From the IMG/VR virus record IMGVR_UViG_3300013902_000267: 64,000 nucleotides of DNA; one strand, given 5' to 3'. A program made the position numbers and the translations under genes. Origin of the DNA: a virus (taxonomy: Duplodnaviria; Heunggongvirae; Uroviricota; Caudoviricetes). Positions 1 through 64,000 of the stretch are shown piece after piece (position 1 is the first letter of the stretch; each line of letters begins with the position of its first letter). The notes beneath the pieces are model-generated. The model searched no databases. It was given only the letters and a program-made list of their open reading frames with translations, and was not told where the DNA came from.

Positions 1-32
1 TATATATAAGATAGTAAGCTTATAGATTTTAT

Positions 33-103
33 TGGGATATAATGTAATGGTAACATGGAATACTCTGAATGTTCTCTTACTGGTTCGAATCCGGTTATCC
101 CAA
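33..103 (+). tRNA. tRNA-Gln (anticodon CUG)
   Basis: Hand-folded cloverleaf: acceptor TGGGATA/TATCCCA, D stem ATGT/ACAT, anticodon stem GAATA/TGTTC with loop CTCTGAA (U33, CUG, A37), T arm ACTGG-TTCGAAT-CCGGT. Confidence 0.8.
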
Positions 104-222
104 CATATTCGTAATTTTTATTTTTTATTTTTTTTATTTTTAAAGGATTTATACATAAAGAGAAAAGGTTAATAAGATTTATTTCTTATTAACCTTTATT
201 ATTTTATTTCTTAAAATAAATA

Positions 223-846
223 TTAATCTTCATCATCCCAATAATCATAATATTCATTTGGATCATAATTTAATTCTTTATCTTCCTTAAAATTATCAAT
301 CACCTTAGAATTTTCAACAAATTCTTTTACTTTTTCTATAATATCTGCATCGTTAATCATTATTTCTTGAGTGCCATCTGTTAACATTAAACCATCAATA
401 TTTATTTTATCGATTTTACATTCAGTTTCATCTGGATCATCAGGTTGATCATAATCATGTGAACGCATACCTGGCGTATAATCAACCCAACAATCAATGT
501 CTGCATTAAATGCTAAACTTACGCCATAATCTTCCATTGAACGTGTTAATATTGTTGCTGTTTCATTCTTTGGATCAACATCTGGTATAATATTACACAT
601 TAAACAATCGTCATCTTGATCATATTGCTCTATATATCCATTATCATTAAGAAGATCCATAATTAATGAATTAATTAATTCTTGTGGAAGTGATTCCATA
701 TCAGAAAGATCAATATCTCCATTTTCATCATAATACTTTGGATCAATATTAGATGATGTTATTATACCTTCATTAAGTGATTTCTTAAGTGCTGAAGCAA
801 TACCATTTACTAATGATTCATATAATGCTTTATTTTGTTTCTTCAT
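223..846 (-). CDS. acidic hypothetical protein with shared N-terminal leader motif (LYES..KK.LNE)
   Basis: Track ORF of 207 aa, very D/E-rich. Its N-terminal ~28 aa resemble those of the sigma factor (59148-60137) and the lysozyme (62683-63897). Confidence 0.6.
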   Translation of the reverse strand: MKKQNKALYESLVNGIASALKKSLNEGIITSSNIDPKYYDENGDIDLSDMESLPQELINSLIMDLLNDNGYIEQYDQDDDCLMCNIIPDVDPKNETATILTRSMEDYGVSLAFNADIDCWVDYTPGMRSHDYDQPDDPDETECKIDKINIDGLMLTDGTQEIMINDADIIEKVKEFVENSKVIDNFKEDKELNYDPNEYYDYWDDED

Positions 847-942
847 AATTTCTATTAAATGCTAAATTATTTTTTATATTTATCATTTTTAAAACTATTT
901 AAAATAATTAATCTATAATAATTAAAATAAAAGGTTTGTTTT

Positions 943-1518
943 ATGAGTACACGTTGTAATTTACAAATACAAGATAATATAGAAGGAGAACATATATTAT
1001 ATCGACACTGTGATGGCATGCCAGATTCTGCAGGTAATGAAATAAAGAATTTCCTTAATGACTATGTAAAGAATACTAATACAACATATAATTATGAAGA
1101 AATTTCTAAAGGTATTATAGAACAGTTAGGATTTGAAGACGAAGGTAAAGTAGCAAAAGATATAAACTATTTTTATGAAATTGTTGTGCATCCAAATACA
1201 ATATTCTATACATGTTGGCATGTACCTGTATTTGGCAATTATGATATTGATAGTTTGGAGGATTATCCTGATTGTGAAGAACTAGAATGTGAGGAATTCA
1301 ATAAGTGTAATATACGAAAAGAAACTATTAATAAATCAACAGATGATATTGTTGATTCTAAAGAACTATTAAAATATGTAGATAGAAGAAATAAATTTCT
1401 TGATGAACTTTTAGATGAAGTTGAATTAAACGGTGGTATATCAAGAGATAAAATTATGAATATGTTAAAAGTAACATATGATCAGGGGTATAATTATAAT
1501 AGAGTAGATAATATTTAA
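943..1518 (+). CDS. hypothetical protein
   Basis: Track ORF of 191 aa; long open frame in a stop-rich AT background. Confidence 0.55.
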   Translation: MSTRCNLQIQDNIEGEHILYRHCDGMPDSAGNEIKNFLNDYVKNTNTTYNYEEISKGIIEQLGFEDEGKVAKDINYFYEIVVHPNTIFYTCWHVPVFGNYDIDSLEDYPDCEELECEEFNKCNIRKETINKSTDDIVDSKELLKYVDRRNKFLDELLDEVELNGGISRDKIMNMLKVTYDQGYNYNRVDNI

Positions 1519-1530
1519 TTTATAATTGTT

Positions 1531-1710
1531 ATGAAAAAATATTTAGAGATTCATTTGAAATATGAATTACCAGAAGATTATGATATTGATATTATAAATG
1601 ATGGTATTGATAATAAAGAAACATGGTCTTATATATTAGATTTAATGACAGATAATGAAAATAGAGAAAGTAAGGATACATGTAAATATACAACAGTTAA
1701 GATATACTAA
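1531..1710 (+). CDS. small hypothetical protein (59 aa)
   Basis: ATG..TAA frame read by hand (MKKYLEIHLKYELPEDYD...). It fills the gap between neighbouring genes and is below the track cutoff. Confidence 0.35.
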   Translation: MKKYLEIHLKYELPEDYDIDIINDGIDNKETWSYILDLMTDNENRESKDTCKYTTVKIY

Positions 1711-1712
1711 AT

Positions 1713-2396
1713 ATGAAACATTACGATTCAATAGATAATATAAAATATAATACTGAATTAGTAGGAGAACAAGTATGGGCATTCAATAAATTAGATGGTC
1801 AGAATTTTTGTGCTAAATATTCTGTAAAGAAAAAGGAATTTACAAATTTTGGTTCAAGAAAATGTATGGTAGATGAGACATCAGAACAATTTGGTGATGC
1901 TGTACGTTATTTTAAATCACATAATTATTCATCTATATTAAGTAATATAGTTGAAAAACATAGAGTAAAGAAAGATATATTTTGTGGTGTTGATGAAATT
2001 ACATTTTTCTTCGAATGGTATGGAGAACATAGTTTTGCAGGATTTCATTCTGAAGAAGATAAAGATAATATGCATCTTGCATTAATTGATGTGTTCATCA
2101 AAAAGAAGGGATATATTGAACCAAAGATATATATGGATCTATTTAGAGATTGTGGAATAGAATTGCCGCAATTAGTTTATACGGGACCATTATCAAATGA
2201 TTTTATTAAAGATATTCAAGAAAATGACTGGACTGAACCAAATTGTAAATTTCCTTATGTAAAGGAAGGTGTTGTAATAAGGAGATCTACTATTTTAAAA
2301 GGACAACGAATGCCTAAAGTAAAAGTTAAAACAAAATGGTGGTTAACTGAATTACATAAAAGATATACAGAAGAAGAATGTAAATTATTAGAGTAA
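1713..2396 (+). CDS. ATP-dependent RNA ligase-like nucleotidyltransferase
   Basis: Ligase motifs in order: NKLDGQN (KxDG), FFFEWYGEHS, KEGVVIRR, PKVKVKTKWW. Confidence 0.65.
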   Translation: MKHYDSIDNIKYNTELVGEQVWAFNKLDGQNFCAKYSVKKKEFTNFGSRKCMVDETSEQFGDAVRYFKSHNYSSILSNIVEKHRVKKDIFCGVDEITFFFEWYGEHSFAGFHSEEDKDNMHLALIDVFIKKKGYIEPKIYMDLFRDCGIELPQLVYTGPLSNDFIKDIQENDWTEPNCKFPYVKEGVVIRRSTILKGQRMPKVKVKTKWWLTELHKRYTEEECKLLE

Positions 2397-2398
2397 TT

Positions 2399-2851
2399 AT
2401 GACAACAGGTGAATTAGACGAAATTGTAAAAGATATTATTAATATTTTTGGTAAACATATAAAGCTTGCAAGTTTATCAGAAAAATCATATGCAACAGGA
2501 CATGAAAATTATTATGATATAGTGTTTGAGAATACTACATCATTTACTTCACGAATGTTCGGTTATCAATATAGAAAGTTCCTTAATAATCTTGCAAGTT
2601 TAACTAATGGTGAAACAAGAAAAACAAATTCATATAAAGGATTTGTATATTATTGGTTTCCTGGATTTATTTACAAGAAAAATAATTTAAGAATTGAATT
2701 TGGAAGGAAAGGTTGGAATAGACATAGTGGTGATGATTCAACTACATGTTTTTATATGACGACTAATAACAAATATATTATTGAAGAAATTGTTAATAAT
2801 ATATTAAGAGATAGAGATATACGTATTTTAAAGAAGAATGATTATGAATAA
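2399..2851 (+). CDS. hypothetical protein
   Basis: Track ORF of 150 aa, translationally coupled to its neighbours. Confidence 0.5.
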   Translation: MTTGELDEIVKDIINIFGKHIKLASLSEKSYATGHENYYDIVFENTTSFTSRMFGYQYRKFLNNLASLTNGETRKTNSYKGFVYYWFPGFIYKKNNLRIEFGRKGWNRHSGDDSTTCFYMTTNNKYIIEEIVNNILRDRDIRILKKNDYE

Positions 2852-3491
2852 TAAACCAACATTAGTTGTTCCAAAAGGCAGACTATATAAAGGAATTAAA
2901 CATATGTTTAATTTATGTAATATTGATATGCCTGATGAGAATACTAGACAATATTATTTCCCTGATTGGAGTGATGATTGTGCATTATTTATAGCAAAAC
3001 CTAAAGCAATACCAGAATTAATTGCAAGTAAATTCTGTGAATTCAGTATGTGCGGATATGATATTATAAAGAATAGTGAATATGAAAATGATATAGAGCT
3101 CATTAAACACACAGGACTAAATAGAGTAAAAGTATGTTTAGCTTCACGATATAATATTGATGAATTGTGTCATATGAATAAACCAGTTATTTGTGCCACA
3201 GAATTTGATGTGTTAGCAAATCATTATTTTACAAAATTAGGAATTCCACATTATATATTAAATACAGCAGGTTCAACAGAAGGATATATTGATATTGGTG
3301 CAGATTGTATTATTGATGTTGTAGAAACAGGGAAAACACTTAAAGAAAATAATATTAATATATTAGATACACTGATTGATACTGATACATGTATATTTGA
3401 ACATGCATCATTAATGGATGCAATGTTACCATCAAATATACAAATAATTTATGATCAATGGATTAATAAGACATGGGAAACGAGAATGTAA
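2838..3491 (+). CDS. hisG: ATP phosphoribosyltransferase (HisG short form)-like
   Basis: N-terminal LVVPKGRL and C-terminal IDIGADCIIDVVETGKTLKENNI match HisG signature regions; length 217 aa. Confidence 0.6.
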   Translation: MIMNNKPTLVVPKGRLYKGIKHMFNLCNIDMPDENTRQYYFPDWSDDCALFIAKPKAIPELIASKFCEFSMCGYDIIKNSEYENDIELIKHTGLNRVKVCLASRYNIDELCHMNKPVICATEFDVLANHYFTKLGIPHYILNTAGSTEGYIDIGADCIIDVVETGKTLKENNINILDTLIDTDTCIFEHASLMDAMLPSNIQIIYDQWINKTWETRM

Positions 3492-3934
3492 AATATATAG
3501 TAGAATTTGATGGTAATGATGGCACAGGAAAAACTTATACGATAAAAGTATTATCAAAAGTTTTTTCTAACTGTATTTTTATAGATAGAGGATTATTCAG
3601 TAAAGCAACATTGCTATCAGACGAAAATGATGAAATGTATAAGTATATTGATGATAATATTGATATGAATAGAATTTATATTATATTGGATGATTATCCA
3701 GAACATTGTCAAATGCTTATAAAAAGAAGAGGAGATTCTATTGAAGAGAAATATCATACAATAGAAGATTTAGAGTATTATCGTAAACAATTTACAAACT
3801 TATATGGTTATTGTTGTAAAAAGAATTATGATAATGTTTATTTAGTTACACGATTATTACCAGATCATGTTCAGGTAATGATTGATATTATTAAGAAATT
3901 TACTAATTTTAATAAGGAAAATAATAATGAGTAA
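3473..3934 (+). CDS. P-loop nucleotide kinase (dNMP/thymidylate kinase-like)
   Basis: VEFDGNDGTGKTY resembles the ExxDGxGKsT P-loop of dTMP kinase-type enzymes. Confidence 0.5.
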   Translation: MGNENVKYIVEFDGNDGTGKTYTIKVLSKVFSNCIFIDRGLFSKATLLSDENDEMYKYIDDNIDMNRIYIILDDYPEHCQMLIKRRGDSIEEKYHTIEDLEYYRKQFTNLYGYCCKKNYDNVYLVTRLLPDHVQVMIDIIKKFTNFNKENNNE

Positions 3935-4577
3935 AATAATTATTGGTACCAGTAATCCAGGTAAGATTAGAGAAATTGCATCTATTCTTTCACCATTAGG
4001 ATATGAGATTGAACCGCATGCATTGGATGTTGATGAAACAGGAAAGACTATTAAAGATAATGCTATTATAAAAGCAAAAGCATATAGTAATGTATTTCCA
4101 GATACTTATGTTATTGCAGAAGATAGTGGATTAGTCGTTCCTAAATTGAATAATCTTCCTGGTCCGTATTCAGCAAGATTTCATGAAATTACAATAGATG
4201 ATAATTTGAATGTTATAAATGTTCCACATGAAGAATTTACTACGGATAAATCTGAACATGATAAACTTAATAATGAGAAGTTGTTGAAGTATATTAAAGA
4301 TATTCCGTTTGATGAGCGTGCAGCATATTTTGAAGTATGTTTTGTCATTGCAAAGAATGGAATTATTCAAGAAACATTTAGTGGTTATTCATATGGTTAT
4401 ATAGCAGATGAATTACGTGGAACAAATGGATTTGGTTATGATCCATTGTTTATTGGTGAGAATACATTTGGTAAGACATATGCAGAACTAGATTCTGCAA
4501 GAAAGAATTTAAAGAGTCACAGAAAGCAAGCATTGAAACAATTGGGCCTTTGGGTTTCACAGAATATAGAGAATTAA
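3927..4577 (+). CDS. rdgB: dITP/XTP pyrophosphatase (RdgB/HAM1 family)
   Basis: IIIGTSNPGKIREI, EDSGLVVPKLNNLPGPYSAR and GFGYDPLF motifs. Start placed at the internal ATG (MSKIIIG) of track ORF 3882-4577. Confidence 0.75.
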   Translation: MSKIIIGTSNPGKIREIASILSPLGYEIEPHALDVDETGKTIKDNAIIKAKAYSNVFPDTYVIAEDSGLVVPKLNNLPGPYSARFHEITIDDNLNVINVPHEEFTTDKSEHDKLNNEKLLKYIKDIPFDERAAYFEVCFVIAKNGIIQETFSGYSYGYIADELRGTNGFGYDPLFIGENTFGKTYAELDSARKNLKSHRKQALKQLGLWVSQNIEN

Positions 4578-4583
4578 TAATAT

Positions 4584-5075
4584 ATGAAGAAATTTATTTT
4601 TCCAGGTTCATTTGATCCTTTTACAAATGGGCATAAAGCAATAGTAGATCAGACATATAAATTGTGTGATGAATTTATTATAGCATTAGCGACAAACTTA
4701 AAGAAAGGAGAAGGACTTATTAAACGTCCTGAGCGTATTAAGTTAATTAAAGAGATTTTTAAAGATTATCCGAATGTAAAGGTAATTGATATGACAGATA
4801 CCTTGATTTCTGATTATTGTAAAAAGAATGGAGTTTCTTATATTGTTAGAGGTATCAGAAATTCGGAAGACTTTACATATGAAAAATCATTGGCAGCTAC
4901 TAACCATTATTTGGCAGGTGTAGAAACAATGTTGGTAATGGGTTTTTGCGAACCATATAATATTGATATTTCATCTACATTCGTTAGAGAATTGGTACAT
5001 TATAAATTACCTATTGGTGAGTTTGTTCCACCAGTTGTTGAACAATATATTAAAGATAATAATTTAACATGGTAA
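4584..5075 (+). CDS. coaD: phosphopantetheine adenylyltransferase (CoaD-like cytidylyltransferase fold)
   Basis: FPGSFDPFTNGH, VRGIRNSEDFTYE and ISSTFVRELV align with PPAT motifs; length 163 aa. Confidence 0.7.
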   Translation: MKKFIFPGSFDPFTNGHKAIVDQTYKLCDEFIIALATNLKKGEGLIKRPERIKLIKEIFKDYPNVKVIDMTDTLISDYCKKNGVSYIVRGIRNSEDFTYEKSLAATNHYLAGVETMLVMGFCEPYNIDISSTFVRELVHYKLPIGEFVPPVVEQYIKDNNLTW

Positions 5076-5938
5076 ATAAGATTCAAGAAGAAGATTTAAA
5101 AGCAGTTGAGTATTGTAAAACTGTATTATATCCTAAATGGAATATCAAAGATTTGTATTCTATAGATTTTGATACATTTAGAAAAATGCCGTTGGTTGTA
5201 GAAGGTGAAAGTAAAGAGATACGTGCATTGGATGATGATTATTGTATCATTTATTTTAAACCTACAATTTATTCATTTACATATAATAGAACTGGTATTG
5301 TAGAAGGAAGTAATATTCCACGTGTTCATGTAAGTAAAGTATTGTGTGAGTTACTTAAAGAAAATGGTATTAAACATGCATATCTAGATTATGGTGATGA
5401 ATTTGTATTAGCACGCATAATTAAAGATACACCTAATATTGAAGTTGTTGTAAAAGCAAATCATACAGGTACAAGTAAACATAGATATTTTGGTATGGGT
5501 AAATCACATGTAAGAATGTCACATCCATATTATTCGGGAATGAAAATTAAAGACATGGAACCATATCCAGCACCTATTGTAAGATTTGATTGGCGAAATC
5601 CATTTTGGGAACCAAATACACATAAGATGTTAGCTGATGAAGTTATGTGCGATGATCAAGCAGATTATTATATTGATGTTAAGAAAGCAAAGAAAACTGC
5701 AGCACTAACATTCAGTGTATTAAGTGATTTTCTTGCAAGTAAAGATATTGTTATTTATGATTTGTGTTTGTTTATATCAGAAGATGGTGAAACAGTATAT
5801 GGAGAAATTTCACCAGATTGTGGAAGATATAGACATTATGATTTAGGAAGTCTTGATAAGGATGTATGGCGTGCAGGAGGTTCATCAGATCAGGTATTGG
5901 AGAAGTGGAATTTACTGTATAAAATGATTACACAATAA
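5069..5938 (+). CDS. SAICAR synthetase (PurC)-like ATP-grasp-type ligase
   Basis: EGESKEIR near the N-terminus and GEISPDCGRYRH resemble the PurC GKxK and (D/E)xxPDxxR motifs; weak, made by eye. Confidence 0.45.
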   Translation: MVNKIQEEDLKAVEYCKTVLYPKWNIKDLYSIDFDTFRKMPLVVEGESKEIRALDDDYCIIYFKPTIYSFTYNRTGIVEGSNIPRVHVSKVLCELLKENGIKHAYLDYGDEFVLARIIKDTPNIEVVVKANHTGTSKHRYFGMGKSHVRMSHPYYSGMKIKDMEPYPAPIVRFDWRNPFWEPNTHKMLADEVMCDDQADYYIDVKKAKKTAALTFSVLSDFLASKDIVIYDLCLFISEDGETVYGEISPDCGRYRHYDLGSLDKDVWRAGGSSDQVLEKWNLLYKMITQ

Positions 5939-5940
5939 TT

Positions 5941-6177
5941 ATGAGAAAATACGAATGTGAGATTGAAGATTATCATGGACATTTCTTTCACCATCGGTTT
6001 GAAGCAAACGATGATAATGAAGCGTTGGATAAAGCAAATGACCATGGTTATAGATATTATGCTAATGATGATACTTTATATTATGTAGAAGGAGATTATG
6101 TTGATTATAGTAATATAAGTACAGATCATTATAAAGAGAATATAAAGAAGTACCATCAAATATGGACTTCAATTTAA
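5941..6177 (+). CDS. hypothetical protein
   Basis: Track ORF of 78 aa. Confidence 0.5.
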   Translation: MRKYECEIEDYHGHFFHHRFEANDDNEALDKANDHGYRYYANDDTLYYVEGDYVDYSNISTDHYKENIKKYHQIWTSI

Positions 6178-6189
6178 ATAGTATATTTA

Positions 6190-6225
6190 AAAGTCACTAA
6201 AATAAAAACTTTAGTGACTTTTTCT
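6190..6225 (+). terminator. rho-independent terminator
   Basis: AAAGTCACTAAA / TTTAGTGACTTT 12-bp hairpin followed by a T run. Confidence 0.6.
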
Positions 6226-6263
6226 ATTATTATATATGAATTATAATTTAAACTATAAGATAA

Positions 6264-6647
6264 ATGAATTTAATTACAAATATAAAGAAATCATACAAAC
6301 ATATACCATATACATTTAAACATTGGAAGATGGTATTGAAATTAGAGAAGAAATATATAGGCTATTATAAATATCCTTTTCATGATTTAGATAAATTGTT
6401 CATGTATATATTCTTCCCTTATTTAGGAACAAAGATAATTCAGAAAATTCATACAAAGTTTGCTAATCATCATTTACGTAAATATAAGAAACATATGAAT
6501 TTTGATGAAGCTATTCTTGATTGGGAATCTGCAAGGTTTACAAAACCTGATAAACCATTGGATGCGTGGGATACATATCAAAAATATTTTACGGAATTTT
6601 CAAATGAACTTTTACCTATATTTGAAAAATTTAACTTGAAACATTAA
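6264..6647 (+). CDS. hypothetical protein
   Basis: Track ORF of 127 aa. Confidence 0.5.
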   Translation: MNLITNIKKSYKHIPYTFKHWKMVLKLEKKYIGYYKYPFHDLDKLFMYIFFPYLGTKIIQKIHTKFANHHLRKYKKHMNFDEAILDWESARFTKPDKPLDAWDTYQKYFTEFSNELLPIFEKFNLKH

Positions 6648-6869
6648 AGACTTTATTTATATACGTTTATATAAAATACATAATGATTTTGTTTTAGAAG
6701 AACATTTATAAAAACTGTTTTAATAATTAGTGTAAAAGTGAGCACACAGAAAAAGAGAATTATGATAATTTCTGTAGAGCATGGATCAATACCAGCATTA
6801 TATAATGTACAGTTTATAGCAACGAATGTTCGAAATTTAAATTAACTATATGTCTAACATTCTTAATTT

Positions 6870-6939
6870 TTATTATTGGTAATAAGTGGCAAAACATGCT
6901 AGGAATAGTAAGTTATCGGTTCGAACCCGATATAATAAA
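6870..6939 (+). other. tRNA-like fragment (T arm plus acceptor only)
   Basis: ATCGG-TTCGAAC-CCGAT T arm and TTATTAT/ATAATAA acceptor pairing are present, but no acceptable D or anticodon arm could be folded. Confidence 0.25.
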
Positions 6940-7154
6940 GATAGAAAATGGATGATAGTTAATGATGCTAGATATAACGCTTATTATAGAAGTATTATAG
7001 GATTTGATTGAAGTGTGGATGTTTATTATACCTGTTCTATTTTTTAATAAAACAAATGTCCCTATAGATTGAAACATGGATTGAGATGAATATAATATGA
7101 TGTAATTTTAAGTTTGTTATATTTAGCATTAATTTTTTAATAAGAATTATTAAT

Positions 7155-7598
7155 ATGTATATGTTACGATTACAAGATTTACCAGATGGTGCAATAGTTC
7201 AATTATACTATAGGTCTTACGAAGAAGGATATGGACGTAGTAAACCAATGTTTAGAACATATATTATATCATTTAATGATAATACTATAATTTTTTCAAA
7301 TGTAGAATCTAAATACGAAGGTAATTTTAGTTTTTATTTAAATCAAACAGCACAATATATACATTTTGATCCAACAGACATAAATAATATTAATAATTTT
7401 GGATTTGATAAAAACTATATTATTGTATATGGAATTTATACATTTGATGATTCTAATAATAAAGTAAAAATGCCATATTCAATGAAAGGCAAGTATAAAA
7501 TGAACATATACAATACAAAATGTATATATCAAGAAGATATATCAAAAATTGCAGGGGATGAAATACAAGCTTACAATAGACGATACAAATATTATTAA
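7155..7598 (+). CDS. hypothetical protein
   Basis: Track ORF of 147 aa. Confidence 0.45.
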   Translation: MYMLRLQDLPDGAIVQLYYRSYEEGYGRSKPMFRTYIISFNDNTIIFSNVESKYEGNFSFYLNQTAQYIHFDPTDINNINNFGFDKNYIIVYGIYTFDDSNNKVKMPYSMKGKYKMNIYNTKCIYQEDISKIAGDEIQAYNRRYKYY

Positions 7599-10863: not shown

Positions 10864-10874
10864 TATGATATAAT

Positions 10875-55327: not shown

Positions 55328-56911
55328 TTAGTCAACAGTTCCATCAAGAAGTTTATGAACTGCATCTTGACGAGTCTTTCGGATTTCAGCAAGTGTAAAC
55401 TCTCTTACTAACTTACCATCTTCAAAAACAGTCTTCAATTCATTCTTATCTGATGCTTCCTCTTCAGGCGTTACACGATCAACTGGTACATACTTACCAT
55501 TACCATCTTTTACAACCATAAGAAGTCCACGATGTGATTTCTTTGGCATACCGCATACTGTTTTAGGATCCTTATAAATTTCTATAGGTTTGCCATTAAC
55601 TTTACACCATGTAGACTTACAGGCTATGCCTAAAGAATCTCTGGATCGTACATTATAAGTAAAGCTTCCTATACCTTCAATAAGGTTAGTTGCTGCGAAA
55701 CCCTTATCTTCAAGTTGAGAATATGTATCCTTTTGGCGTTTCATATTAATTGAGTCTCCATAAAGAAGTCCAATATGTGGATCAAGAATTTTATATCCTT
55801 TTTCATTAAATGTTCCACCGAACGTATTCCAAAGAAATTCATAAGAACCCATCTTTACAAATGGATCTTCTGCTTCCGGATCACCACAAATAATTTTAAC
55901 AGGATCACCACTATCAGGACGAATTACTACACGCCCATTACGAGACATAATTTGTTCTTTATACTTAGGAACAATCTTTGTCAAGAAATACCAATAATCA
56001 TAACCATCTGCAACAATTGAAATAATACCATCTGGAAATTCATCAAGCATATTCTTAAAATAAACTTCATCATTTGGCTTACCTGTTTCATCTGTTGCAT
56101 TAGAGCACTCAATAGAATGTTCAGTAGCTGGAACAGTTGCAGCTATCAATTCTTTTTTAGGATCTGCATTATAATAATACTCAATCATCTTAATTGCTGG
56201 AACTGTTTCAGAACCACAAAAAGAAGTAAGATGTGCCATACCAGAAACAATAGATGCTTCAAATGAACTCATTCCTCTCATAGAGAAATCATGACATAGA
56301 AATGCAAGATTAGACATATCGTTAGGATTATAAAAACCAGTTTTCATAGCATGTCTAACAAGTTCACGTTTAAATACATCAGCTGTTGTTGCAGAAGTAA
56401 TTGGAAGCCAAAGGACATTTGAAGTCAAAGACTCCAAATAATTTGTGAGCCAAGCAAAATCAGGATGTGTATTTGTGATTGTTAAAATAGGGCATCCGAT
56501 TGGACAATATGAACCTTCAGGAAGTGCCTTAATACGAATAGGAAGATAACCAAGTTTATGCAATGCAATAATATGATCAACCCCTACTTTCTTTGCAACT
56601 GCTTCTCCTAGAAATGTAGTTGTCAAATCTGTATAAGTTTTTCGTACAGTATCTTCATCAAGATTAAAGAAATAATTATTAAATGTATTAATAAGATACT
56701 TCTTAATAAAATACTGAATACCAAACACAACTGCTCCCTCTGTAGCTTCCGGAAAATATTTATTACTACGAGGAGTAAAGTTACTGAAAAGTTGCGTCAT
56801 TCCCTTAGGGTACATACAGTGATGACCAAGCTTGTAGCCATCTGTCATAAGCATTGCATTAAGAAGTATGTCTTCTACCAATACATGCTGTGAATCTTTT
56901 ACGTTTGTCAT
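55328..56911 (-). CDS. nadV: nicotinamide phosphoribosyltransferase (NAMPT/NadV)
   Basis: LMTDGYKLGHHCMYPKG, VIRPDSGDP and LLYGDSIN motifs; 527 aa. Confidence 0.85.
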   Translation of the reverse strand: MTNVKDSQHVLVEDILLNAMLMTDGYKLGHHCMYPKGMTQLFSNFTPRSNKYFPEATEGAVVFGIQYFIKKYLINTFNNYFFNLDEDTVRKTYTDLTTTFLGEAVAKKVGVDHIIALHKLGYLPIRIKALPEGSYCPIGCPILTITNTHPDFAWLTNYLESLTSNVLWLPITSATTADVFKRELVRHAMKTGFYNPNDMSNLAFLCHDFSMRGMSSFEASIVSGMAHLTSFCGSETVPAIKMIEYYYNADPKKELIAATVPATEHSIECSNATDETGKPNDEVYFKNMLDEFPDGIISIVADGYDYWYFLTKIVPKYKEQIMSRNGRVVIRPDSGDPVKIICGDPEAEDPFVKMGSYEFLWNTFGGTFNEKGYKILDPHIGLLYGDSINMKRQKDTYSQLEDKGFAATNLIEGIGSFTYNVRSRDSLGIACKSTWCKVNGKPIEIYKDPKTVCGMPKKSHRGLLMVVKDGNGKYVPVDRVTPEEEASDKNELKTVFEDGKLVREFTLAEIRKTRQDAVHKLLDGTVD

Positions 56912-57106
56912 AAAATAATTTGTTTAAATTTTAATTTGATTACAATAATAATTTGTTTGTTTAATTATCTTGTAATCATTATTTATATATATTATTAATT
57001 AAATTGTTTATAAAATTCATATTAAAAAAATAACATCCTATTTTCACAAACAAGATGTTAATAATTCAAAGACATATTTATTTGAAAATTAAGTTGCGAA
57101 ATTAAT

Positions 57107-57652
57107 TTATGCAGCCTGTCGAACTTCCCAATCAATAATATCAACAACATACTTTTCTTTGTTGATAGAAATTGACTTAATATTTTTAAGTGAAAGTGTT
57201 CTATACTCAATAACAGAAGTACTTGCCTTTTTCTTTGGCATGAATCTCTTCATATACACTTCATCTTCTGCAGAAATCTTCTCACCATTAAGAATAATAT
57301 TATTCTTTGAATAATTATTAGGAATGTAAATCAAACATACATTACCTGTACTAATATATTGCATAACAACATTCTTTACAAGATGACGGCGATTTGTATC
57401 TGTTGCCTTATAATCCTCACCAAGAATCTTACTCATTGTCTTTTCATAATCCTGTCCAAAATGGAAAGTAACTGAGAAATCTGTGCGTGGTTGAAATCCA
57501 TCCTTAATATGTTCCTTAGGAAGACCATCTGTATTAAACTTATTCAACTTAATATCAGACTCACCATATACAGTGACATACTTACCGTTGCACTTTGCGT
57601 TAGACATAAGCTCGATAAACTCATCTACTGTTGTAATAATATTGTTGTTCAT
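57107..57652 (-). CDS. hypothetical protein
   Basis: Track ORF of 181 aa, preceded by the promoter/leader cassette. Confidence 0.5.
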   Translation of the reverse strand: MNNNIITTVDEFIELMSNAKCNGKYVTVYGESDIKLNKFNTDGLPKEHIKDGFQPRTDFSVTFHFGQDYEKTMSKILGEDYKATDTNRRHLVKNVVMQYISTGNVCLIYIPNNYSKNNIILNGEKISAEDEVYMKRFMPKKKASTSVIEYRTLSLKNIKSISINKEKYVVDIIDWEVRQAA

Positions 57653-57697
57653 ATTCTTTATATTTTTAATTGTTCAACTTAATTGTTTTATTAACAA

Positions 57698-57709
57698 TAC
57701 AAAGATACA
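57698..57709 (-). promoter_or_regulatory. conserved promoter core (gene-sense TGTATCTTTGTA) plus conserved leader
   Basis: TTATTAACAATACAAAGATACA is identical at 59021-59042 and 61889-61910; 46 nt to the start codon. Confidence 0.5.
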
Positions 57710-57746
57710 TGTTTTATTTCAAATAAAAAAATATTAGAAGAAAAAA

Positions 57747-57887
57747 TTAAATATTTTCTCTTAAAAATTTATCGATAAGTTTTTTAACACTATTACATTT
57801 ATATTGTGTTTCTACATAACTACCTGTCCAATCAGTATGAACATGAAAATTCTCAAGAAACCAGTTTGCAATCTTTTCTTTATCCAT
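57747..57887 (-). CDS. small hypothetical protein (46 aa)
   Basis: MDKEKIANWFLENFHVHTDWTG... read by hand; its start overlaps the stop of the upstream gene. Confidence 0.3.
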   Translation of the reverse strand: MDKEKIANWFLENFHVHTDWTGSYVETQYKCNSVKKLIDKFLRENI

Positions 57888-57888
57888 A

Positions 57889-58188
57889 TCAATAATCTTC
57901 TGCATCTCGTGAAACTCTCATATTCTTTAAATCATTAATGAGTTTTTCACACTCTTTTAACAATACATATATAGTAGAAATAATTATCACTATAATAAAT
58001 AATAATATTCCTAATGCTATATAAAACCCTGAATCTTCATAATTAGAAATAAACTTAAAACATGTAATTATATATGTAAAAGTAAATGGTATTACTAAAC
58101 ATAAAATCCAATTTATTATATGTCTCCATACATGTTTCTCTATATATTCGTTTCTCTCTTTATGTGATTTAAACCATTTATTTTCCAT
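57889..58188 (-). CDS. membrane protein
   Basis: Track ORF of 99 aa with two hydrophobic helices. Confidence 0.5.
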   Translation of the reverse strand: MENKWFKSHKERNEYIEKHVWRHIINWILCLVIPFTFTYIITCFKFISNYEDSGFYIALGILLFIIVIIISTIYVLLKECEKLINDLKNMRVSRDAEDY

Positions 58189-58229
58189 ATTTCCTATTTC
58201 TTTTTTACATCATCAATAGTTAGAATACG

Positions 58230-58415
58230 TCACTTTTTAATATAAAATTTCTTTATAGATGGAGATTCCTGTATTTCTTCAAATAATGAACATGGACTAA
58301 ACCAATTATGTACAGTCTTAGCATATTCCATTGCTGTCTCTTCTGAATCGCAAACTGCAGATAATTCACGATTATATTCGTCACATGTACGATAAACTTC
58401 TACAACTTCTTTCAT
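58230..58415 (-). CDS. hypothetical protein
   Basis: Track ORF of 61 aa. Confidence 0.45.
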   Translation of the reverse strand: MKEVVEVYRTCDEYNRELSAVCDSEETAMEYAKTVHNWFSPCSLFEEIQESPSIKKFYIKK

Positions 58416-58434
58416 AATTATATGTAATTTAAAA

Positions 58435-58623
58435 TTAATTATTCAAATGTATATCATTAATACATAAAGGGATAAAAATATAAAATATATTTTCTATATA
58501 TAATGATAAAATCAAATTCCATAAATTATCTATAGTTAACATATTATAATACCAAAATCCCAATATAGTTAGTACGCTACCTATGATAGAACATAAAATA
58601 GTAAATTTATATATTTGTTTCAT
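58435..58623 (-). CDS. small membrane protein
   Basis: Track ORF of 62 aa, hydrophobic. Confidence 0.45.
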   Translation of the reverse strand: MKQIYKFTILCSIIGSVLTILGFWYYNMLTIDNLWNLILSLYIENIFYIFIPLCINDIHLNN

Positions 58624-59009
58624 TCTTTAATTTTTCTACCTAAAATATTTTTTAACATCCATACCAACATATTAAATGCAACCAATAATTTATTTTCTGT
58701 ATCATCAGTCTCTTCTGAATGAACTATATTATCACCTTTCATATTTTCAAGTTTCACCGAATAACTATCAATAACCATATAATATTCTGTACTCATAGTC
58801 AAATCTTCAATACGACGGTATAAATCTTGAAGAGTATATGTATAATAACCTAATTTATACTTAACTAATTGTTCACAATAATCTTTGTGCATATTTACAT
58901 TATATTGATTTTTACCAATATAAATTAATGAAGCATCTGAAATATCAAGTCCAAGCTTCACCAATATATCCATATTATCTTTTGATAATGTAATTGTATT
59001 CTCTTTCAT
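58620..59009 (-). CDS. hypothetical protein
   Basis: Track ORF 58620-59030 trimmed to MKENTITL, because the promoter motif occupies 59031-59042. Confidence 0.5.
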   Translation of the reverse strand: MKENTITLSKDNMDILVKLGLDISDASLIYIGKNQYNVNMHKDYCEQLVKYKLGYYTYTLQDLYRRIEDLTMSTEYYMVIDSYSVKLENMKGDNIVHSEETDDTENKLLVAFNMLVWMLKNILGRKIKE

Positions 59010-59030: not shown

Positions 59031-59042
59031 TACAAAGATACA
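59031..59042 (-). promoter_or_regulatory. conserved promoter core (gene-sense TGTATCTTTGTA)
   Basis: Motif copy 22 nt upstream of ATG 59009. Confidence 0.5.
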
Positions 59043-59147
59043 TATTTTATTTTAAATAAAAAAGAGATATAACAAAATAATCTGTTATACCTCTTATAAA
59101 ATATATCTTAAAATAATAAAAAATTACATAATATATTGTAAAAGCAT

Positions 59148-60137
59148 CTATGTTTCCTCATCAGCTTTTAATTTTGGATATGCAGCTCTAAGTATCTGTA
59201 ATACACGTGTTTCTGTCATTCCATGTTCTTCTGCAACTTGCCATGTATTCTTTTCACCACGTCCATTAATACCATAGCAATCACATACAATTTCACCATC
59301 TCTTTCACCAAGAACTCTCTTTACATTATCTTCAAGTTCTCTTTCAAGATCAGCGTTATTAAGATTACTATCAGGGTCTTTAAATGTCCTATTAGCTGTT
59401 ACATCACCTAATGTTGTTTTAGAATCATCATCATCCCCGTATGATTTATCCAAACTATTTGCACGTGTATTTGCTTCCATTGTTTGTGCAAATGTTTCAT
59501 ATTTCAAATCTGGATGTTTCTTTACGAGAACATTATAAATATCATCAATATCAGGTTCATAACCATTCTTATTATATAATTGATCCTTGATACGAGCGGC
59601 TTCACGAGCAATACTACCCATATTACGGGGAACTGCCATATGTCCACCTACCTCATCAACAGCAGTCATAATTTCTCTACGAATATACCAAATAGCATAA
59701 GAAACAAAACGTACATCTTTACCTGGCAAACTTGGATCATATGTATCTGCTGCTTGCATAAGTCCTATATTTCCATATTGAATCATATCTTCCTTTGGTA
59801 TATTAATATTTTTATACTTATTGACAACAGAAATAACAAATGGAAGATTTGCGGACACCAACTTATTCTTTGCCTTTTCAATTTCTCTCTTATTATCAGA
59901 ATGTTGAATAATATCAGCAAGTTTCACTTCATCTGCATGTGATAATTGTTTTTTCTTATTAATAGCATGTAAATATGCAATAGTAGACTTTGCTGTATTT
60001 TCATCCTGTGTAATAGCAAAATCATCATGCAAATCCATATGCATTCCATTATTAGCTTCATTGAGTTTCTTTCTAATAGTCTTAGAAACATTTCTCATGA
60101 TACTTTCATACAATGTCTTCTTTTCATTTAACTTCAT
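59148..60137 (-). CDS. sigma-70 family RNA polymerase sigma factor
   Basis: Region 2 LPFVISVVNKYKN...YGNIGLMQAADTYDP...FVSYAIWYIRREI and region 4 WQVAEEHGMTETRVLQILRAAYPKL. The N-terminus carries the shared leader motif. Confidence 0.8.
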   Translation of the reverse strand: MKLNEKKTLYESIMRNVSKTIRKKLNEANNGMHMDLHDDFAITQDENTAKSTIAYLHAINKKKQLSHADEVKLADIIQHSDNKREIEKAKNKLVSANLPFVISVVNKYKNINIPKEDMIQYGNIGLMQAADTYDPSLPGKDVRFVSYAIWYIRREIMTAVDEVGGHMAVPRNMGSIAREAARIKDQLYNKNGYEPDIDDIYNVLVKKHPDLKYETFAQTMEANTRANSLDKSYGDDDDSKTTLGDVTANRTFKDPDSNLNNADLERELEDNVKRVLGERDGEIVCDCYGINGRGEKNTWQVAEEHGMTETRVLQILRAAYPKLKADEET

Positions 60138-60189
60138 ATCTTGATAAAAATTATTTCAATATTTTAAATATTTATCTTAAAATAAAAAT

Positions 60190-61444: not shown

Positions 61445-61448
61445 TTTA

Positions 61449-61853
61449 CTAAATATATCTTAAATCATCTGCATAATCGCACATATCTAAAAATTCATTT
61501 TGAAGTTCACTATCTATAATAGTAAATGCTCTGACTTCATCATATGATTTCTTGTCTGGAATAACATCACACCAATCTGCATCCACATCATATACTTTAT
61601 GCGTCGCTGTAGACATAACACGAATCATTGTTTTTTCTTTATATTCTTGTGTATATCCTAACGGTCCATATTCGTTAACTAATACTGTTTTCTTAAATGG
61701 CTTCATAATACATACAAGTCTTGTATTCATTTCATCTTTCTCACATGAATACATTCCTGGTATAAGCAATACTCTTTTACCTGTTGTTACATTTATATTA
61801 TATTCACAGTTACTTCTGAGAAATATCAAATCACCAATATTAAAGCACATCAT
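61449..61853 (-). CDS. hypothetical protein
   Basis: Track ORF of 134 aa, preceded by the promoter/leader cassette. Confidence 0.5.
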   Translation of the reverse strand: MMCFNIGDLIFLRSNCEYNINVTTGKRVLLIPGMYSCEKDEMNTRLVCIMKPFKKTVLVNEYGPLGYTQEYKEKTMIRVMSTATHKVYDVDADWCDVIPDKKSYDEVRAFTIIDSELQNEFLDMCDYADDLRYI

Positions 61854-61898
61854 AATTCTTTATATTTTTAATTGTTTATATTCTTATTTTATTAACAA

Positions 61899-61910
61899 TA
61901 CAAAGATACA
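61899..61910 (-). promoter_or_regulatory. conserved promoter core (gene-sense TGTATCTTTGTA) plus conserved leader
   Basis: 46 nt to start codon 61853. The leader ACAATTAAAAATATAAAGAAT is shared with the 57652 gene. Confidence 0.5.
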
Positions 61911-62091
61911 CATTATTTTTGATATAAAAAAGAAAACATAAAGAAATATCAATTTTTATAGTAAAAACAATTAAAATTCTATAGAAATCTTATTAAATTT
62001 TATAATATTTTTTAAACAAGTATAGATAAGAAAAGTCTACCATGACTTACATCATAATAGACTTATAGTACATCTTTAAAAATAATATCTG

Positions 62092-62187
62092 TGGATATAG
62101 ATGGACTCGAACCACCATGTATCTGCCCTAGAATTATGATACAAACTAACATCATATTAGTCGCGTTTACCATTTCGCCATATATCC
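62092..62187 (-). tRNA. type-II (long variable arm) tRNA, Ser(UGA)-like, with a non-canonical anticodon loop
   Basis: Acceptor GGATATA/TATATCC, Ser-like D arm TGGCGAAATGGTAAACGC, anticodon stem ACTAA/TTAGT with loop TATGATG (A33, U37), a 26-nt variable hairpin TGTATC..GATACA, and T arm GGTGG-TTCGAGT-CCATC. Confidence 0.55.
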
Positions 62188-62193
62188 ATATAG

Positions 62194-62266
62194 CAGGCCT
62201 GATGAGATTCGAACTCACAACAACATGATTAAAATTCGTGTGCTCTACCAATTGAGCTACAGGCCC
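62194..62266 (-). tRNA. tRNA-Lys (anticodon UUU)
   Basis: GGGCCTG acceptor, GCTC-AATTGGTA-GAGC D arm, anticodon loop ATTTTAA, and T arm GTGAG-TTCGAAT-CTCAT. Confidence 0.85.
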
Positions 62267-62322
62267 AAAGTTCTATTTTAAATTTCCACGCAATAGAACT
62301 CCGAAGATTTGTAGATCTGTGT

Positions 62323-62472
62323 TCATGGTACTTAATCTAATGCTTGTTTTTAATACTGACGTGTTAACCTCTTCACCAAATCCCCGATTAAATAATATGT
62401 AATAGAGGGGATTCATGGGTTCGAACCATGGATAATCAGTAAAATCATGATATATCACGAATGACACCATGA
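62323..62472 (-). ncRNA. tRNA-like element with closed acceptor stem and open anticodon stem (YrlA / Y-RNA-like topology)
   Basis: Minus strand reads ACTGA-TTATC-CATGG TTCGAAC CCATG-AATCCCC-(21 nt)-GGGGATT-TG-GTG AAGAGGTTAA CAC-G-TCAGT. The flanks TCATGGT (62466-62472) and ACCATGA (62323-62329) pair 25 nt out on each side. Confidence 0.55.
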
Positions 62473-62682
62473 CAATCTACGTTAACTGTAATACTAAAGC
62501 TCTTGACTCAATGCTAACGCTAAAATCTAGGATTCTGTTTATGCTAAATGTAATCAAGCTAATGCTTTAGTCAATTTACATATGTTATATATGATATTAT
62601 ATTCAAAGTCTATTATTCATATCAAAAATATTTTTAAGAAATAAATATCATAAATGAATCGATAACATTTATTATATAATAT

Positions 62683-63897
62683 ATGAATAAGAATTATAAC
62701 AAACTATATGAAGAAATGATGTCAGATATTTCAGTTATCGTTAAAAAGAAAATAAATGAAGCATATGACAATCAGCTTCTCGAAGAATATGGTGCAAAGG
62801 ATATGTTTAATGATATTATGAAAGAAGCATCAAAAGAAGGTAAAATCTTTTATAAGCATCTTAAATAGTTTATAATTTATATCATCAAAAAATTACAAGA
62901 GACAGATCAATATAAAAAAGCTGAAAAACTTATGAATGCGTATGTTCAGAAAGTACAGAAATATATTGATGAACATAAGAAGATTACTCCGAGACGTATG
63001 TTGAAAATTACTGTTGCTGTATTGACAATGTATGGAGGTGTTTCAATGATACAAGATTGTAAATAGATGATTAAATCTTTATAGGGTAATGTTGAAACTT
63101 ATGAATAGAAAGTAGAAAATGTACCGGATGAAAAGCAACAAGAAGTAATAGTAGAAGAACCTGAAGATTTTGTTGTTGAAGTTAAAGATGAAGCAAAAGA
63201 AAAATTAAGTGTCAAGAAAGTATCTACTGAAGATATTAATAATACACCTGAAAAGAAATTTAAGGAAGACAAGAATTTCAATTTTAAGTCAAGCAACGAG
63301 GCTCGCGAATTTATTAAACATCATGAGTTATGCTTACTTTACCCTTATTACGCAAAACCCGAAGAGGAAGCAAAAGGAATGGTAACTATTGGTTATGGTC
63401 ATGTTGTATTGGAATCAGATGGTGAATTATACAAGAAAGTATAGCAATTAAAAAAGAAAGGCTTAATTAAACAATCATTTGTTACAAAAAATGGTAAAAC
63501 TATTTTAAACCCTAATCATTGTAAAACCATTATAACAAAGACTGACGCAGATAAATTATTTTAGAAAGATATTAAGATTGCTGAATAGCGTGCATATAGA
63601 ACTATACAAAATATGCCTACTGATGATGATAATGTTAAATATTATATGTTATATAATCAAAAAATAAGAGATGGTTTAACATCATTATGTTATAATGCTG
63701 GATAGCTTAAACATGAAAAATATACATTCATAACAAAAGGTCTTGCAAAATCTAGATATGATTATCAAGCATAGAAAATAAATGCAGGTGATTATAATGT
63801 ATCCTTTAAATATTTCAAGAATATTAAAGATAATCCTAACAGAAGAAATGAGGAATATAAGTTATTCTTTATGAACGCAAATAAGTCTATGTCATAA
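62683..63897 (+). CDS. membrane-anchored GH24 (T4-type) lysozyme with long N-terminal extension (9 in-frame TAG)
   Basis: Track ORF 62683-62868 continues in frame through TAGs to TAA 63895-63897. TM helix ITVAVLTMYGGVSMI; HHELCLLYPYY...GMVTIGYGHVV...TKTDADKLF lysozyme motifs. Confidence 0.75.
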
Positions 63898-63922
63898 TAA
63901 AAAATAAATTTTAATTAAATAT

Positions 63923-64000
63923 ATGAAAAAATTATTTGAAGCAAAATAGAAGCCATTAGTTGTTTATAATCCTGCTGATATTTTCATGAAATATAATATG
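63923..64000 (+). CDS. hypothetical protein, 5' partial at window edge (1 in-frame TAG)
   Basis: ATG AAA AAA TTA TTT GAA GCA AAA TAG AAG CCA..., open to the end of the window. Confidence 0.35.

Follow-up and report, generated by a model that had tools for sequence, protein, structure and literature searches.

The 64,000-nt stretch of DNA analysed here (the window) corresponds at 100% identity to positions 139512-203511 of the Prevotella megaphage Lak-B7 (MK250026.1; genome of 550,702 bp, baboon faeces origin), in which the codon TAG is read as glutamine (Gln). TAG is very unevenly distributed among the genes of this phage, and we consider it probable that its use follows the transcription programme: early genes with host-type promoters would be kept TAG-free, late genes would accumulate TAG, and a suppressor tRNA would gate the synthesis of the full-length products. 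A first-pass annotation of the window had described the strong dependence of TAG use on gene class and had related it to the timing switch proposed for recoded phages. This core finding is real, was correctly interpreted and is already published (Devoto et al. 2019, PMC6784885; Borges et al. 2021/22, bioRxiv 10.1101/2021.08.26.457843). Four additions appear to be new: the two classes of upstream motifs, the selection seen at the level of orthologues, the near-absence of TAG from the capsid and tail tube genes, and the single TAGs in N-proximal positions. The word "promoter" does not occur in Devoto et al. 2019 or Crisci et al. 2021 (PMC8346664), nor does "N-terminal" in Borges et al., which is not a proof of novelty.

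Genes of Lak-B7 were predicted with a simple caller based on codon usage, in which TAG was scored as neutral, yielding 568 genes that cover 89% of the genome. The distribution of TAG among them is bimodal: 1376 in-frame TAGs, that is, 27% of the Gln-type codons, are confined to 210 genes, while 358 of the 568 genes are TAG-free, as compared with expectations of 125 for TAGs placed in proportion to gene length and 155 for TAGs placed over Gln-type codons. The deviation from a spread in proportion to Gln-type codons is large (chi-square 1607, 541 degrees of freedom), and TAG-bearing genes cluster along the genome (runs test z = -9.4). Similarly, 58 of the 81 genes in the window are TAG-free versus 34.8 expected when every Gln-type codon is equally likely to be TAG; the highest value reached in 5000 permutations was 47. 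The gene-class dependence of TAG use is not a matter of chance, and the genome-wide tally correlates with the class of the upstream motif (see below). In an unrelated phage with genetic code 15, phAss-1 (OQ749652), 80 of 120 genes are TAG-free versus 38 expected. The densities in the window, as TAGs per 1000 codons, are:

Tail tube and putative cell-wall hydrolase genes (5 genes): 19.3
Homing-endonuclease open reading frames (ORFs) (4 genes): 11.9
Operon 10270-13166 (4 genes): 11.8
nrdD, helicase and htpG (5 genes): 4.0
All other genes of the window (63 genes): 1.0

Code 15, in which TAG encodes Gln, has already been described for Lak phages (Devoto et al. 2019; Crisci et al. 2021). In the window, whose GC content is 27%, the coverage by ORFs of at least 100 amino acids rises from 71% to 86% once TAG is counted as a sense codon. 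At 62 sites opposite window TAGs, Lak-C1 has TAG in 24 cases, CAA in 13 and CAG in five, and every other codon is found at most four times. The uninterrupted nrdD gene of Lak-A1 has CAA at codon 370, where Lak-B7 has TAG, and five TAGs of the lysozyme gene at 62683-63897 fall within the match to the lysozyme domain. Lak-B7 reads TAG as Gln via its own tRNA(CUA) and encodes a release factor resembling release factor 2 (RF2). The decoding genes, together with an ordinary tRNA-Gln, are located as follows:

Lak-B7 414053-414125, outside the window: suppressor tRNA(CUA), i.e. the tRNA(CTA) gene
Lak-B7 291031-292167: RF2-like gene with the GGQ motif and SPY in place of SPF; TAG-free
33-104, plus strand: ordinary tRNA-Gln(CTG)

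The suppressor has U1-A72, G2 and G3 in common with both phage tRNA-Gln genes, and Lak-C1 carries two copies of tRNA(CTA). The window itself contains no suppressor tRNA, its tRNAs being tRNA-Gln(CTG), tRNA-Lys and one odd tRNA. An Rfam search near the suppressor matched only the tRNA itself, and no ribozyme was detected there. About 87% of the stop codons of Lak-B7 are TAA and about 13% are TGA; no excess of TAG just before the stop codons was found in Lak-B7 genes. The assignment of Lak to a Prevotella host with the standard code is taken from the literature (Devoto et al. 2019; Borges et al.).

Another tRNA, with the anticodon TTA, which would read TAA, is present in Lak-B7 (345556-345628) and in Lak-C1 (254126-254198). 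It is universal in Lak phages, without any sign of TAA recoding (Crisci et al. 2021).

Upstream motifs and TAG use

Comparison of the regions upstream of TAG-free and TAG-rich genes yielded two motifs that define mutually exclusive classes. The early-type motif is TGTATCTTTGTAT with TTTTTATTT before it, and its short core form is TGTATCTTTG. The part TATCTTTG within TGTATCTTTGTAT fits TAnnTTTG, the -7 consensus of Bacteroides sigma-A-type promoters (PMC4747536). The upstream element, about 21 nt before the core, is TTTTTATTT and not a clear TTTG as in the -33 element of Bacteroidetes sigma-A promoters. The core form TGTATCTTTG occurs in 56 copies genome-wide versus roughly two expected from base composition, which is a rough estimate, and in six copies in the window versus 0.40 expected. 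The latter copies precede TAG-free operons:

9603-9612, plus strand: early-type motif
40733-40742, minus strand: early-type motif
52786-52795, minus strand: early-type motif
57700-57709, minus strand: early-type motif
59033-59042, minus strand: early-type motif
61901-61910, minus strand: early-type motif

Genome-wide, the early-type motif is found 25-65 nt upstream of 45 ATGs; 43 of these 45 genes are TAG-free, and the TAG density is 0.23 per 1000 codons. The late-type motif, ATAAATA, often as AATAAATA, corresponds to the T4-type late promoter (T/A)ATAAATA (PMC1524935) and forms a sharp genome-wide peak 26-44 nt upstream of ATG. Behind it, 86 of 112 genes contain TAG, at 12.5 per 1000 codons; it is present in front of 61 of 130 TAG-rich genes versus 27 of 358 TAG-free genes. 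Motif class and TAG status are strongly associated both in Lak-B7 (Fisher p = 5e-18) and in Lak-C1 (p = 5e-16). When the motifs were propagated down co-directional operons, early-type units comprised 143 genes, 133 of them TAG-free (0.71 TAG per 1000 codons), and late-type units comprised 218 genes with 12.6 TAG per 1000 codons. In the window, the late-type motif precedes eight genes or operons:

10241-10247, plus strand: late-type motif 29 nt upstream of the operon 10270-13166
13915-13921, minus strand: late-type motif, tail tube gene
14351-14357, plus strand: late-type motif, gene starting at 14390
24489-24495, minus strand: late-type motif, GIY-YIG ORF
28936-28942, minus strand: late-type motif, nrdD exon 1
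41995-42001, minus strand: late-type motif, LAGLIDADG ORF
60169-60175, minus strand: late-type motif, sigma factor gene
62641-62647, plus strand: late-type motif, lysozyme gene starting at 62683 (42 nt)

The first-pass annotation had suggested a correlation of TAG counts with promoter class; carried out genome-wide, it strongly favours the timing idea. As to the accompanying question of whether the TAG-free set is the same as the early regulon, the early-type set lies within the TAG-free set, but the two are not equal. A T4-like late programme is plausible in Lak because these phages have T4-like core genes, namely gp23, gp32, PolB and a gp19-like tail tube gene.

Over the whole window, ATAAATA and AATAAATA are under-represented (68 copies versus 105 expected and 18 versus 37 expected, respectively). 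The low total yet concentration at a fixed distance from the start looks like avoidance of spurious promoter sites. A third motif, (T)ATATAAT, is found 25-38 nt upstream of starts that have neither of the other two, for example upstream of 44425 and 34816, with 33 of its 97 occurrences falling into a single 12-nt interval. A middle-type or -10-like promoter is one possibility for this motif, which has no TAG bias relative to its group. In late-motif units, the long genes with few TAGs are a mixed set by eye, metabolic enzymes among them.

Conservation of TAG status and position of single TAGs

Comparison of the whole Lak-C1 genome with Lak-B7 gave 470 alignable orthologue pairs. The two members share their TAG status in 430 cases, with 285 pairs TAG-free and 145 TAG-bearing in both genomes (odds ratio 106, p = 3e-75), and the odds ratio is 123 for pairs with less than 70% amino acid identity. 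At CAA and CAG sites of Lak-B7, the Lak-C1 codon is TAG at six of 1470 sites in TAG-free genes versus 190 of 1601 sites in TAG-bearing genes. The TAG-free status is conserved across Lak clades even below 70% identity, which argues for selection against TAG in these genes. The alignments indicate that TAG-free genes are not merely young or foreign, and that TAG is kept out of them.

TAG-rich and TAG-free genes also differ in their preference for A-ending codons (AAA/AAG ratios of 3.6 and 2.0, GAA/GAG ratios of 6.2 and 4.3, respectively). This difference in codon usage might reflect reliance on host tRNAs early and on the 33 phage tRNAs late in infection.

A second regularity concerns genes with only one TAG. 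In 31 of 47 such Lak-B7 genes this TAG is found among codons 1-30, where the location of the Gln-type codons would predict 11.4, and genes with more than five TAGs have no N-terminal bias. The excess is retained when only genes with orthologue-verified starts are considered (16 of 24 versus 4.6 expected) and is seen in Lak-C1 as well (26 of 53 versus 9.7). In phAss-1 there is a weak excess with unverified starts (8 of 21 versus 4.0, p = 0.02). The N-proximal bias of single TAGs is solid. Lak-B7 genes with N-proximal TAGs include those of the major capsid protein (codon 11), gp32 (codon 21), PolB (codon 7, also 185), a 5'-3' exonuclease (codon 28), an Mre11-like phosphoesterase (codon 9) and a DinG-like helicase (codon 30), and, in the window, those of a DnaB-like helicase (codon 22), nrdD (codon 16) and htpG (codon 11). 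The last two are:

27783-28901, minus strand: nrdD exon 1 (ATP-cone and NRDD), TAGs at codons 16, 355 and 370; late-type motif at 28936-28942
32780-34816, minus strand: htpG/Hsp90, single TAG at codon 11 (34786-34784), kept in Lak-C1 and Lak-A1

The N-terminal TAGs of htpG and nrdD had been singled out as exceptions to be explained; they are real coding TAGs and form part of the genome-wide position bias. The htpG TAG sits in a conserved stretch at the N-terminus, where the alignments with TRAP1 structures begin, and the next ATG encodes a conserved internal Met. The TAG at codon 16 of nrdD (28856-28854) lies inside the ATP-cone, which begins at residue 1, and is kept in Lak-C1 and Lak-A1.

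Several other accounts of in-frame TAGs found little or no support. An origin of the N-terminal ones from ORFs extended upstream of the true start could largely be dismissed: the starts coincide in 30 of 42 orthologue pairs; sequences preceding the TAG differ mostly at third codon positions (70, 48 and 129 differences at positions 1, 2 and 3 over 544 codons), like control N-termini; and the homology of htpG and nrdD spans the TAG. A few N-terminal TAGs are probably located upstream of the true start, namely the TAG at 43579 and those of the Lak-B7 genes 42854-43291, 341913-342806 and 484251-484946. Extra conservation of N-proximal TAGs was unsupported, as 13 of 25 are kept versus 234 of 382 other TAGs, and so was replacement of a lost N-proximal TAG by another one nearby (3 of 11 versus 2.0 expected). 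The idea that early genes really end at TAG and have a reserve stop downstream was rejected as well: in single-TAG genes seven TAGs are within 10 codons of the stop versus 4.1 expected, which is no significant excess, TAG-rich genes are depleted in TAG near the stop, and the tail of the sigma factor after its TAG is conserved in Lak-C1. Finally, the context after sense TAG is not special, since its bias to A at position +4 resembles that of CAG and nothing else is distinctive.

Genes of two abundant virion proteins are almost devoid of TAG:

13263-13889, minus strand: tail tube of the T4 gp19 type (phrog_45, 3e-11), TAG-free, late-type motif 32 nt upstream
Lak-B7 54828-56831, minus strand: major capsid protein (Pfam Gp23, 3e-32); its only TAG, at codon 11, is shared with Lak-C1

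In the tail tube gene none of the eight Gln-type codons is TAG (P = 0.028), and in the capsid gene only one of 27 is (P = 9e-5 given the TAG share of the late class). The tail tube, pointed out in the first-pass annotation as a TAG-free exception, is one in Lak-B7, where it has a late-type motif; its orthologues in Lak-C1 and Lak-A1 (99% identical) carry one TAG, at codon 71, which is CAG in Lak-B7, a single C/T difference. The most abundant virion proteins thus seem to minimise TAG, which fits incomplete suppression. The nearly TAG-free tail tube and capsid genes of Lak-B7 contrast with crAss-like phages, where preferential recoding was reported for a tail tube family (bioRxiv 10.1101/2021.08.26.457843).

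Proposed timing of TAG-bearing genes and alternative explanations

The proposed timing switch is supported by the motif classes and by the conservation of TAG status among orthologues. Genes behind host-type (Bacteroides sigma-A-like) promoters would be expressed first, under the standard code, and purifying selection would keep them TAG-free so that host ribosomes can translate them. Genes behind the T4-late-like ATAAATA would tolerate and accumulate TAG, among them those for virion parts, cell-wall hydrolases and homing endonucleases. From TAG-bearing genes, full-length protein would be made only once tRNA(CUA) competes with the host release factor 1 (RF1). If each TAG multiplied the yield by the suppression efficiency, genes with 8-19 TAGs (lysins) would be locked most tightly, and the homing endonucleases would likewise be tightly locked (7-19 TAGs for lysins and homing endonucleases together). 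Abundant or enzymatic proteins, such as the tail tube, the major capsid protein, the replisome, htpG and nrdD, would carry either no TAG or one N-proximal TAG. We infer the timing itself from motifs and gene functions, and the moment of suppressor action and the dose-dependence of the lock would follow from the same scheme.

More tentatively, TAG number and position together could act as a graded timer over the promoter class: one TAG early in the gene would create suppressor dependence at the lowest cost in yield and truncated product, and many TAGs, as in lysins and homing endonucleases, would make the dependence steep. The N-proximal placement could be a selected gate, or it could merely be the least harmful place for a TAG; both interpretations stand. 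The pattern shows where TAG is tolerated, and its use as a switch is what we infer from that.

A number of observations weigh against the proposed link between TAG and the transcription programme. Of the 218 genes in late-type units, 77 are TAG-free, and in 410 of the 568 Lak-B7 genes neither motif is directly upstream. Neither an early- nor a late-type motif was found upstream of any phage tRNA, the suppressor included. The equation of the two motifs with early and late promoters is drawn from motif resemblance and gene function, and the uniform early-type motif could be read by the sigma-70-family factor of the phage, which would make the genes behind it middle rather than immediate-early. 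The lysins of the window do not seem to be recoded beyond the level of other TAG-rich genes: TAG accounts for 0.41-0.57 of the Gln-type codons in the genes for lysozymes and putative hydrolases and for 0.46 of those in all TAG-rich genes. Because a share of 0.46 is within the reach of AT mutation pressure alone, positive selection for TAG is not demonstrated.

The last two points lead to the strongest alternative, which we regard as possible though rather unlikely: TAG may be a passive by-product, with AT-biased CAG to TAG mutation filling the genes expressed in the presence of the suppressor, selection clearing the genes needed earlier, and promoters alone setting the timing. The CAA/CAG ratio of 8.0 in TAG-rich genes versus 3.0 in TAG-free genes, i.e. 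a depletion of CAG, suggests that CAG was converted, and given the T/C bias of 16-20 at the first position of Leu codons (TTG/CTG), the TAG share is at or below a crude neutral expectation. The ordinary conservation of N-proximal TAGs, their lack of replacement nearby and the seemingly unexceptional lysins point in the same direction. A passive process leaves unexplained the clustering of single TAGs in the first 30 codons, unless N-proximal TAGs are the least costly ones. Moreover, TAGs would block translation without the suppressor even as a by-product, so that the functional consequence is the same, and sequence alone hardly separates this explanation from the preferred one.

It is less probable still that expression level rather than timing drives the pattern, such that suppression is inefficient, highly expressed genes avoid TAG and weakly expressed ones drift to it. 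The capsid and tail tube proteins, the most abundant in the virion, agree with this in their scarcity of TAG, the tail tube despite its late-type motif, and we assume that expression level is probably a modifier within the late class. As the main driver, however, it would account neither for the near-absolute lack of TAG in about 140 genes of early-type units, many of them small and uncharacterised, nor for the sharp tracking of TAG status with motif class. A foreign origin of TAG-free genes by recent acquisition from standard-code organisms could be suspected as many of them are metabolic (HisG, SAICAR synthase, NAMPT, Thg1, HtpG-like), but it is very improbable: Lak-A1, Lak-B7 and Lak-C1 all lack TAG in these genes, although the orthologues have diverged to identities of 29-60%; the promoter motif in front of them is conserved throughout the phage; and about half of the aligned Gln-type sites stay Gln in Lak-C1 although so few become TAG. 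Least credible of all is an artefact of gene calling, in which reading TAG as sense would have strung together short ORFs that do not belong to one gene or would have covered non-coding DNA. Apart from the few TAGs that probably precede the true start, orthologues keep their lengths and the domain matches that run across TAGs, public gene calls agree, divergence upstream of N-terminal TAGs is of the coding type, and TAG aligns to Gln codons.

The preferred reading, in which TAG use follows the transcription programme, agrees largely with published work. Concerning code 15 there is no difference in kind from the Lak genomes described by Devoto et al. and Crisci et al., as the window is itself part of Lak-B7, a member of that family. 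Devoto et al. 2019 reported that large stretches of Lak genomes make no use of TAG, that the regions of structural proteins do, and that tRNA(CTA) and RF2 are encoded. In the timing model of Borges et al., early genes use the standard code and structural and lysis genes the alternative one; the machinery of the code change is in the standard code, and the homing endonuclease of an intron is preferentially recoded (Agate phages). For Lak they noted late genes in the alternative code and replication genes "mostly in alternative code". Our results resemble this model in that early genes are TAG-free and late structural and lysis genes TAG-bearing, with the promoter motif as a proxy for timing, and differ in that Lak-B7 lysins do not seem to be above other TAG-rich genes and replication genes have mostly one or two N-proximal TAGs. 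The class of single N-proximal TAGs refines the published remark on Lak replication genes.

The resemblance to T4 consists in (A/T)ATAAATA at a fixed distance before virion, lysozyme and homing-endonuclease genes and in the presence of gp23, gp32, PolB and tail tube genes. T4 uses early promoters read with the host sigma factor and then late TATAAATA promoters read by gp55, and its intron homing endonucleases are expressed late, a feature paralleled by the Lak homing-endonuclease ORFs with their own late-type motifs. The differences are that Lak would add a translational lock by TAG over the promoter class and that the sigma factor encoded in the window is a complete sigma-70-family protein (regions 2, 3 and 4) as opposed to a minimal factor of the gp55 type. 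Amber-suppressor systems, i.e. amber mutants and engineered switches, are similar in that protein is made only with tRNA(CUA) and that expression is shut off most cleanly by a nonsense codon close to the start; in Lak, on the other hand, the system is natural, genome-wide, involves more than 200 genes and has graded TAG numbers.

Recoded phages have to change the reading of the code in the infected cell within minutes. Recoding has been proposed to serve them as a clock that times lysis and assembly, and Lak phages are uncultured. The published picture is unchanged by our analysis but becomes sharper: two motifs predict TAG status, the TAG-free status is held by selection, and there is a class of genes with single N-proximal TAGs. 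The motifs and these genes provide specific sequences for reporters in Bacteroides or Prevotella and for metatranscriptomes and metaproteomes.

Genes and RNAs of the window

A mechanical tally with TAA and TGA as sole stops reproduced all the per-gene TAG counts of the first-pass annotation, minor corrections aside. The TAG-bearing genes with the highest counts, the helicase gene and the remaining operon are:

10270-13166, plus strand: four-gene operon with 2, 5, 2 and 2 TAGs
14390-19425, plus strand: late operon of three TAG-dense genes, TAG being 0.47-0.57 of Gln-type codons
14390-15286, plus strand: first gene of this operon, 8 TAGs
15293-16333, plus strand: second gene, 8 TAGs, lysozyme domain PF18013
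16336-19425, plus strand: third gene, 19 TAGs, 1029 amino acids
23567-24463, minus strand: GIY-YIG-type homing endonuclease ORF within the split nrdD region, 3 TAGs, own late-type motif
26779-27726, minus strand: HNH homing endonuclease ORF with helix-turn-helix repeats, 4 TAGs (HNH_2, 4e-6)
40811-41974, minus strand: LAGLIDADG-type ORF, 7 TAGs, late-type motif 27 nt upstream
44492-46000, minus strand: DnaB-like helicase, TAGs at codons 22 and 104, codon 22 kept in Lak-C1 and Lak-A1
62683-63897, plus strand: membrane-anchored lysozyme, likely endolysin, 9 TAGs (phrog_7; PF00959 at residues 225-367)

One to three TAGs each are found in htpG, nrdD exon 1, the helicase gene, 43934-44425, 50135-51157, 52835-53368 and 53414-53884. 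The Lak-C1 orthologue of the HNH ORF likewise has four TAGs, and all three TAGs of the GIY-YIG ORF are kept in Lak-A1. All TAG-bearing genes listed by the first-pass annotation were found, and the operon 10270-13166, which has no Pfam or PHROG match, had been omitted from that list. For nrdD exon 1, the two TAGs given were correct and a third, at 27794, had been missed.

No TAG is present in the genes of the tail tube, NAMPT, Thg1, S1, DHH, Band_7, CNNM and in both Metallophos genes. The TAG-free blocks are:

943-10149, plus strand: 15 TAG-free genes, including RNA ligase, HisG, Ham1-like, CTP_transf-like and SAICAR synthase
29039-32393, minus strand: TAG-free genes including Metallophos and Band_7/SPFH
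35496-40698, 46126-49829 and 54265-59009: further TAG-free blocks, including TelA, CNNM, Thg1, S1, NT5C and NAMPT
59124-60137, minus strand: sigma-70-family factor (regions 1.2, 2, 3 and 4) with a sole TAG just after region 4, listed here for comparison

Orthologues of the array 943-10149 in Lak-C1 and Lak-A1 are also TAG-free, down to 29-60% amino acid identity, and its last gene (9658-10149) has an early-type motif upstream. The sigma factor gene had been reported as TAG-free and in fact contains one TAG, at 59150-59148 (codon 330 of 337), which aligns to AGA in Lak-C1, where the tail beyond it is conserved. The factor would be intact under either code because its only TAG lies after region 4. 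The second RNA ligase gene (42044-43585) had also been given as TAG-free; it has a TAG at 43579, and public gene calls start 10 codons later, so that this TAG is probably upstream of the true start. The ORF 61446-61853 (minus strand), located behind an early-type motif, has TAG as its last sense codon, directly followed by the stop, and because of this its product differs by one Gln at most however TAG is read. Public gene calls on the same DNA have identical code-15 lengths.

The function labels of the first-pass annotation were mostly borne out by matches: the tail tube (phrog_45, 3e-11), the lysozyme domains (PF18013 and PF00959/phrog_7), HNH_2, GIY-YIG (marginal), LAGLIDADG_3 (faint), HSP90, NRDD with ATP-cone, DnaB_C, Sigma70, NAMPT, Thg1, S1, DHH, Band_7, CNNM and Metallophos. 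A hydrolase function of 14390-15286 and the label "glycosyltransferase" for 50135-51157 were not confirmed. The genes 14390-15286 and 16336-19425 have no Pfam, PHROG or PDB sequence match, and an AlphaFold single-sequence model of residues 834-1004 of the 16336-19425 product was unusable (pLDDT 38). The products of 14390-15286 and 15293-16333 share a C-terminal module (YPVHDEYET...TRIYSTND...LDELSIP.DP) and have different N-terminal domains; the product of 14390-15286 contains a DCSGF motif that by eye is NlpC/P60-like, with no family match found.

The nrdD gene (21816-28901, minus strand) is broken up into several parts, which are separated by HNH, NUMOD4/HNH_3-like (25547-26083, TAG-free) and GIY-YIG ORFs. 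The interruptions vary by clade: the first part is uninterrupted in Lak-A1 (691 amino acids), and the second part has 599 amino acids in Lak-C1. A search of the nrdD region with group I intron models gave no Rfam match at the gathering threshold. The top Lak-C1 match of the LAGLIDADG ORF 40811-41974 is the neighbouring RNA-ligase gene (42044-43585), with 92% identity over a part of the sequence; the ORF may be fused to, or inserted beside, a partial duplicate of the RNA-ligase gene.

Intergenic gaps of 400-830 nt without a called gene are present in the window, for example 34817-35495 and 61854-62682; large, highly expressed intergenic regions have been reported in Lak genomes (Devoto et al. 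2019). A 96-nt tRNA-like gene at 62092-62187 (minus strand) adjoins tRNA-Lys and has an Rfam tRNA score of 45 bits. It is missed by ARAGORN with default settings and, when introns are allowed, is called as Asn(GTT) with an "intron" of 4 nt and an extra arm of great length; inspection by eye gives TGA (Ser-like) in the anticodon loop. Enigmatic introns in Lak tRNAs have been reported before (Devoto et al. 2019).

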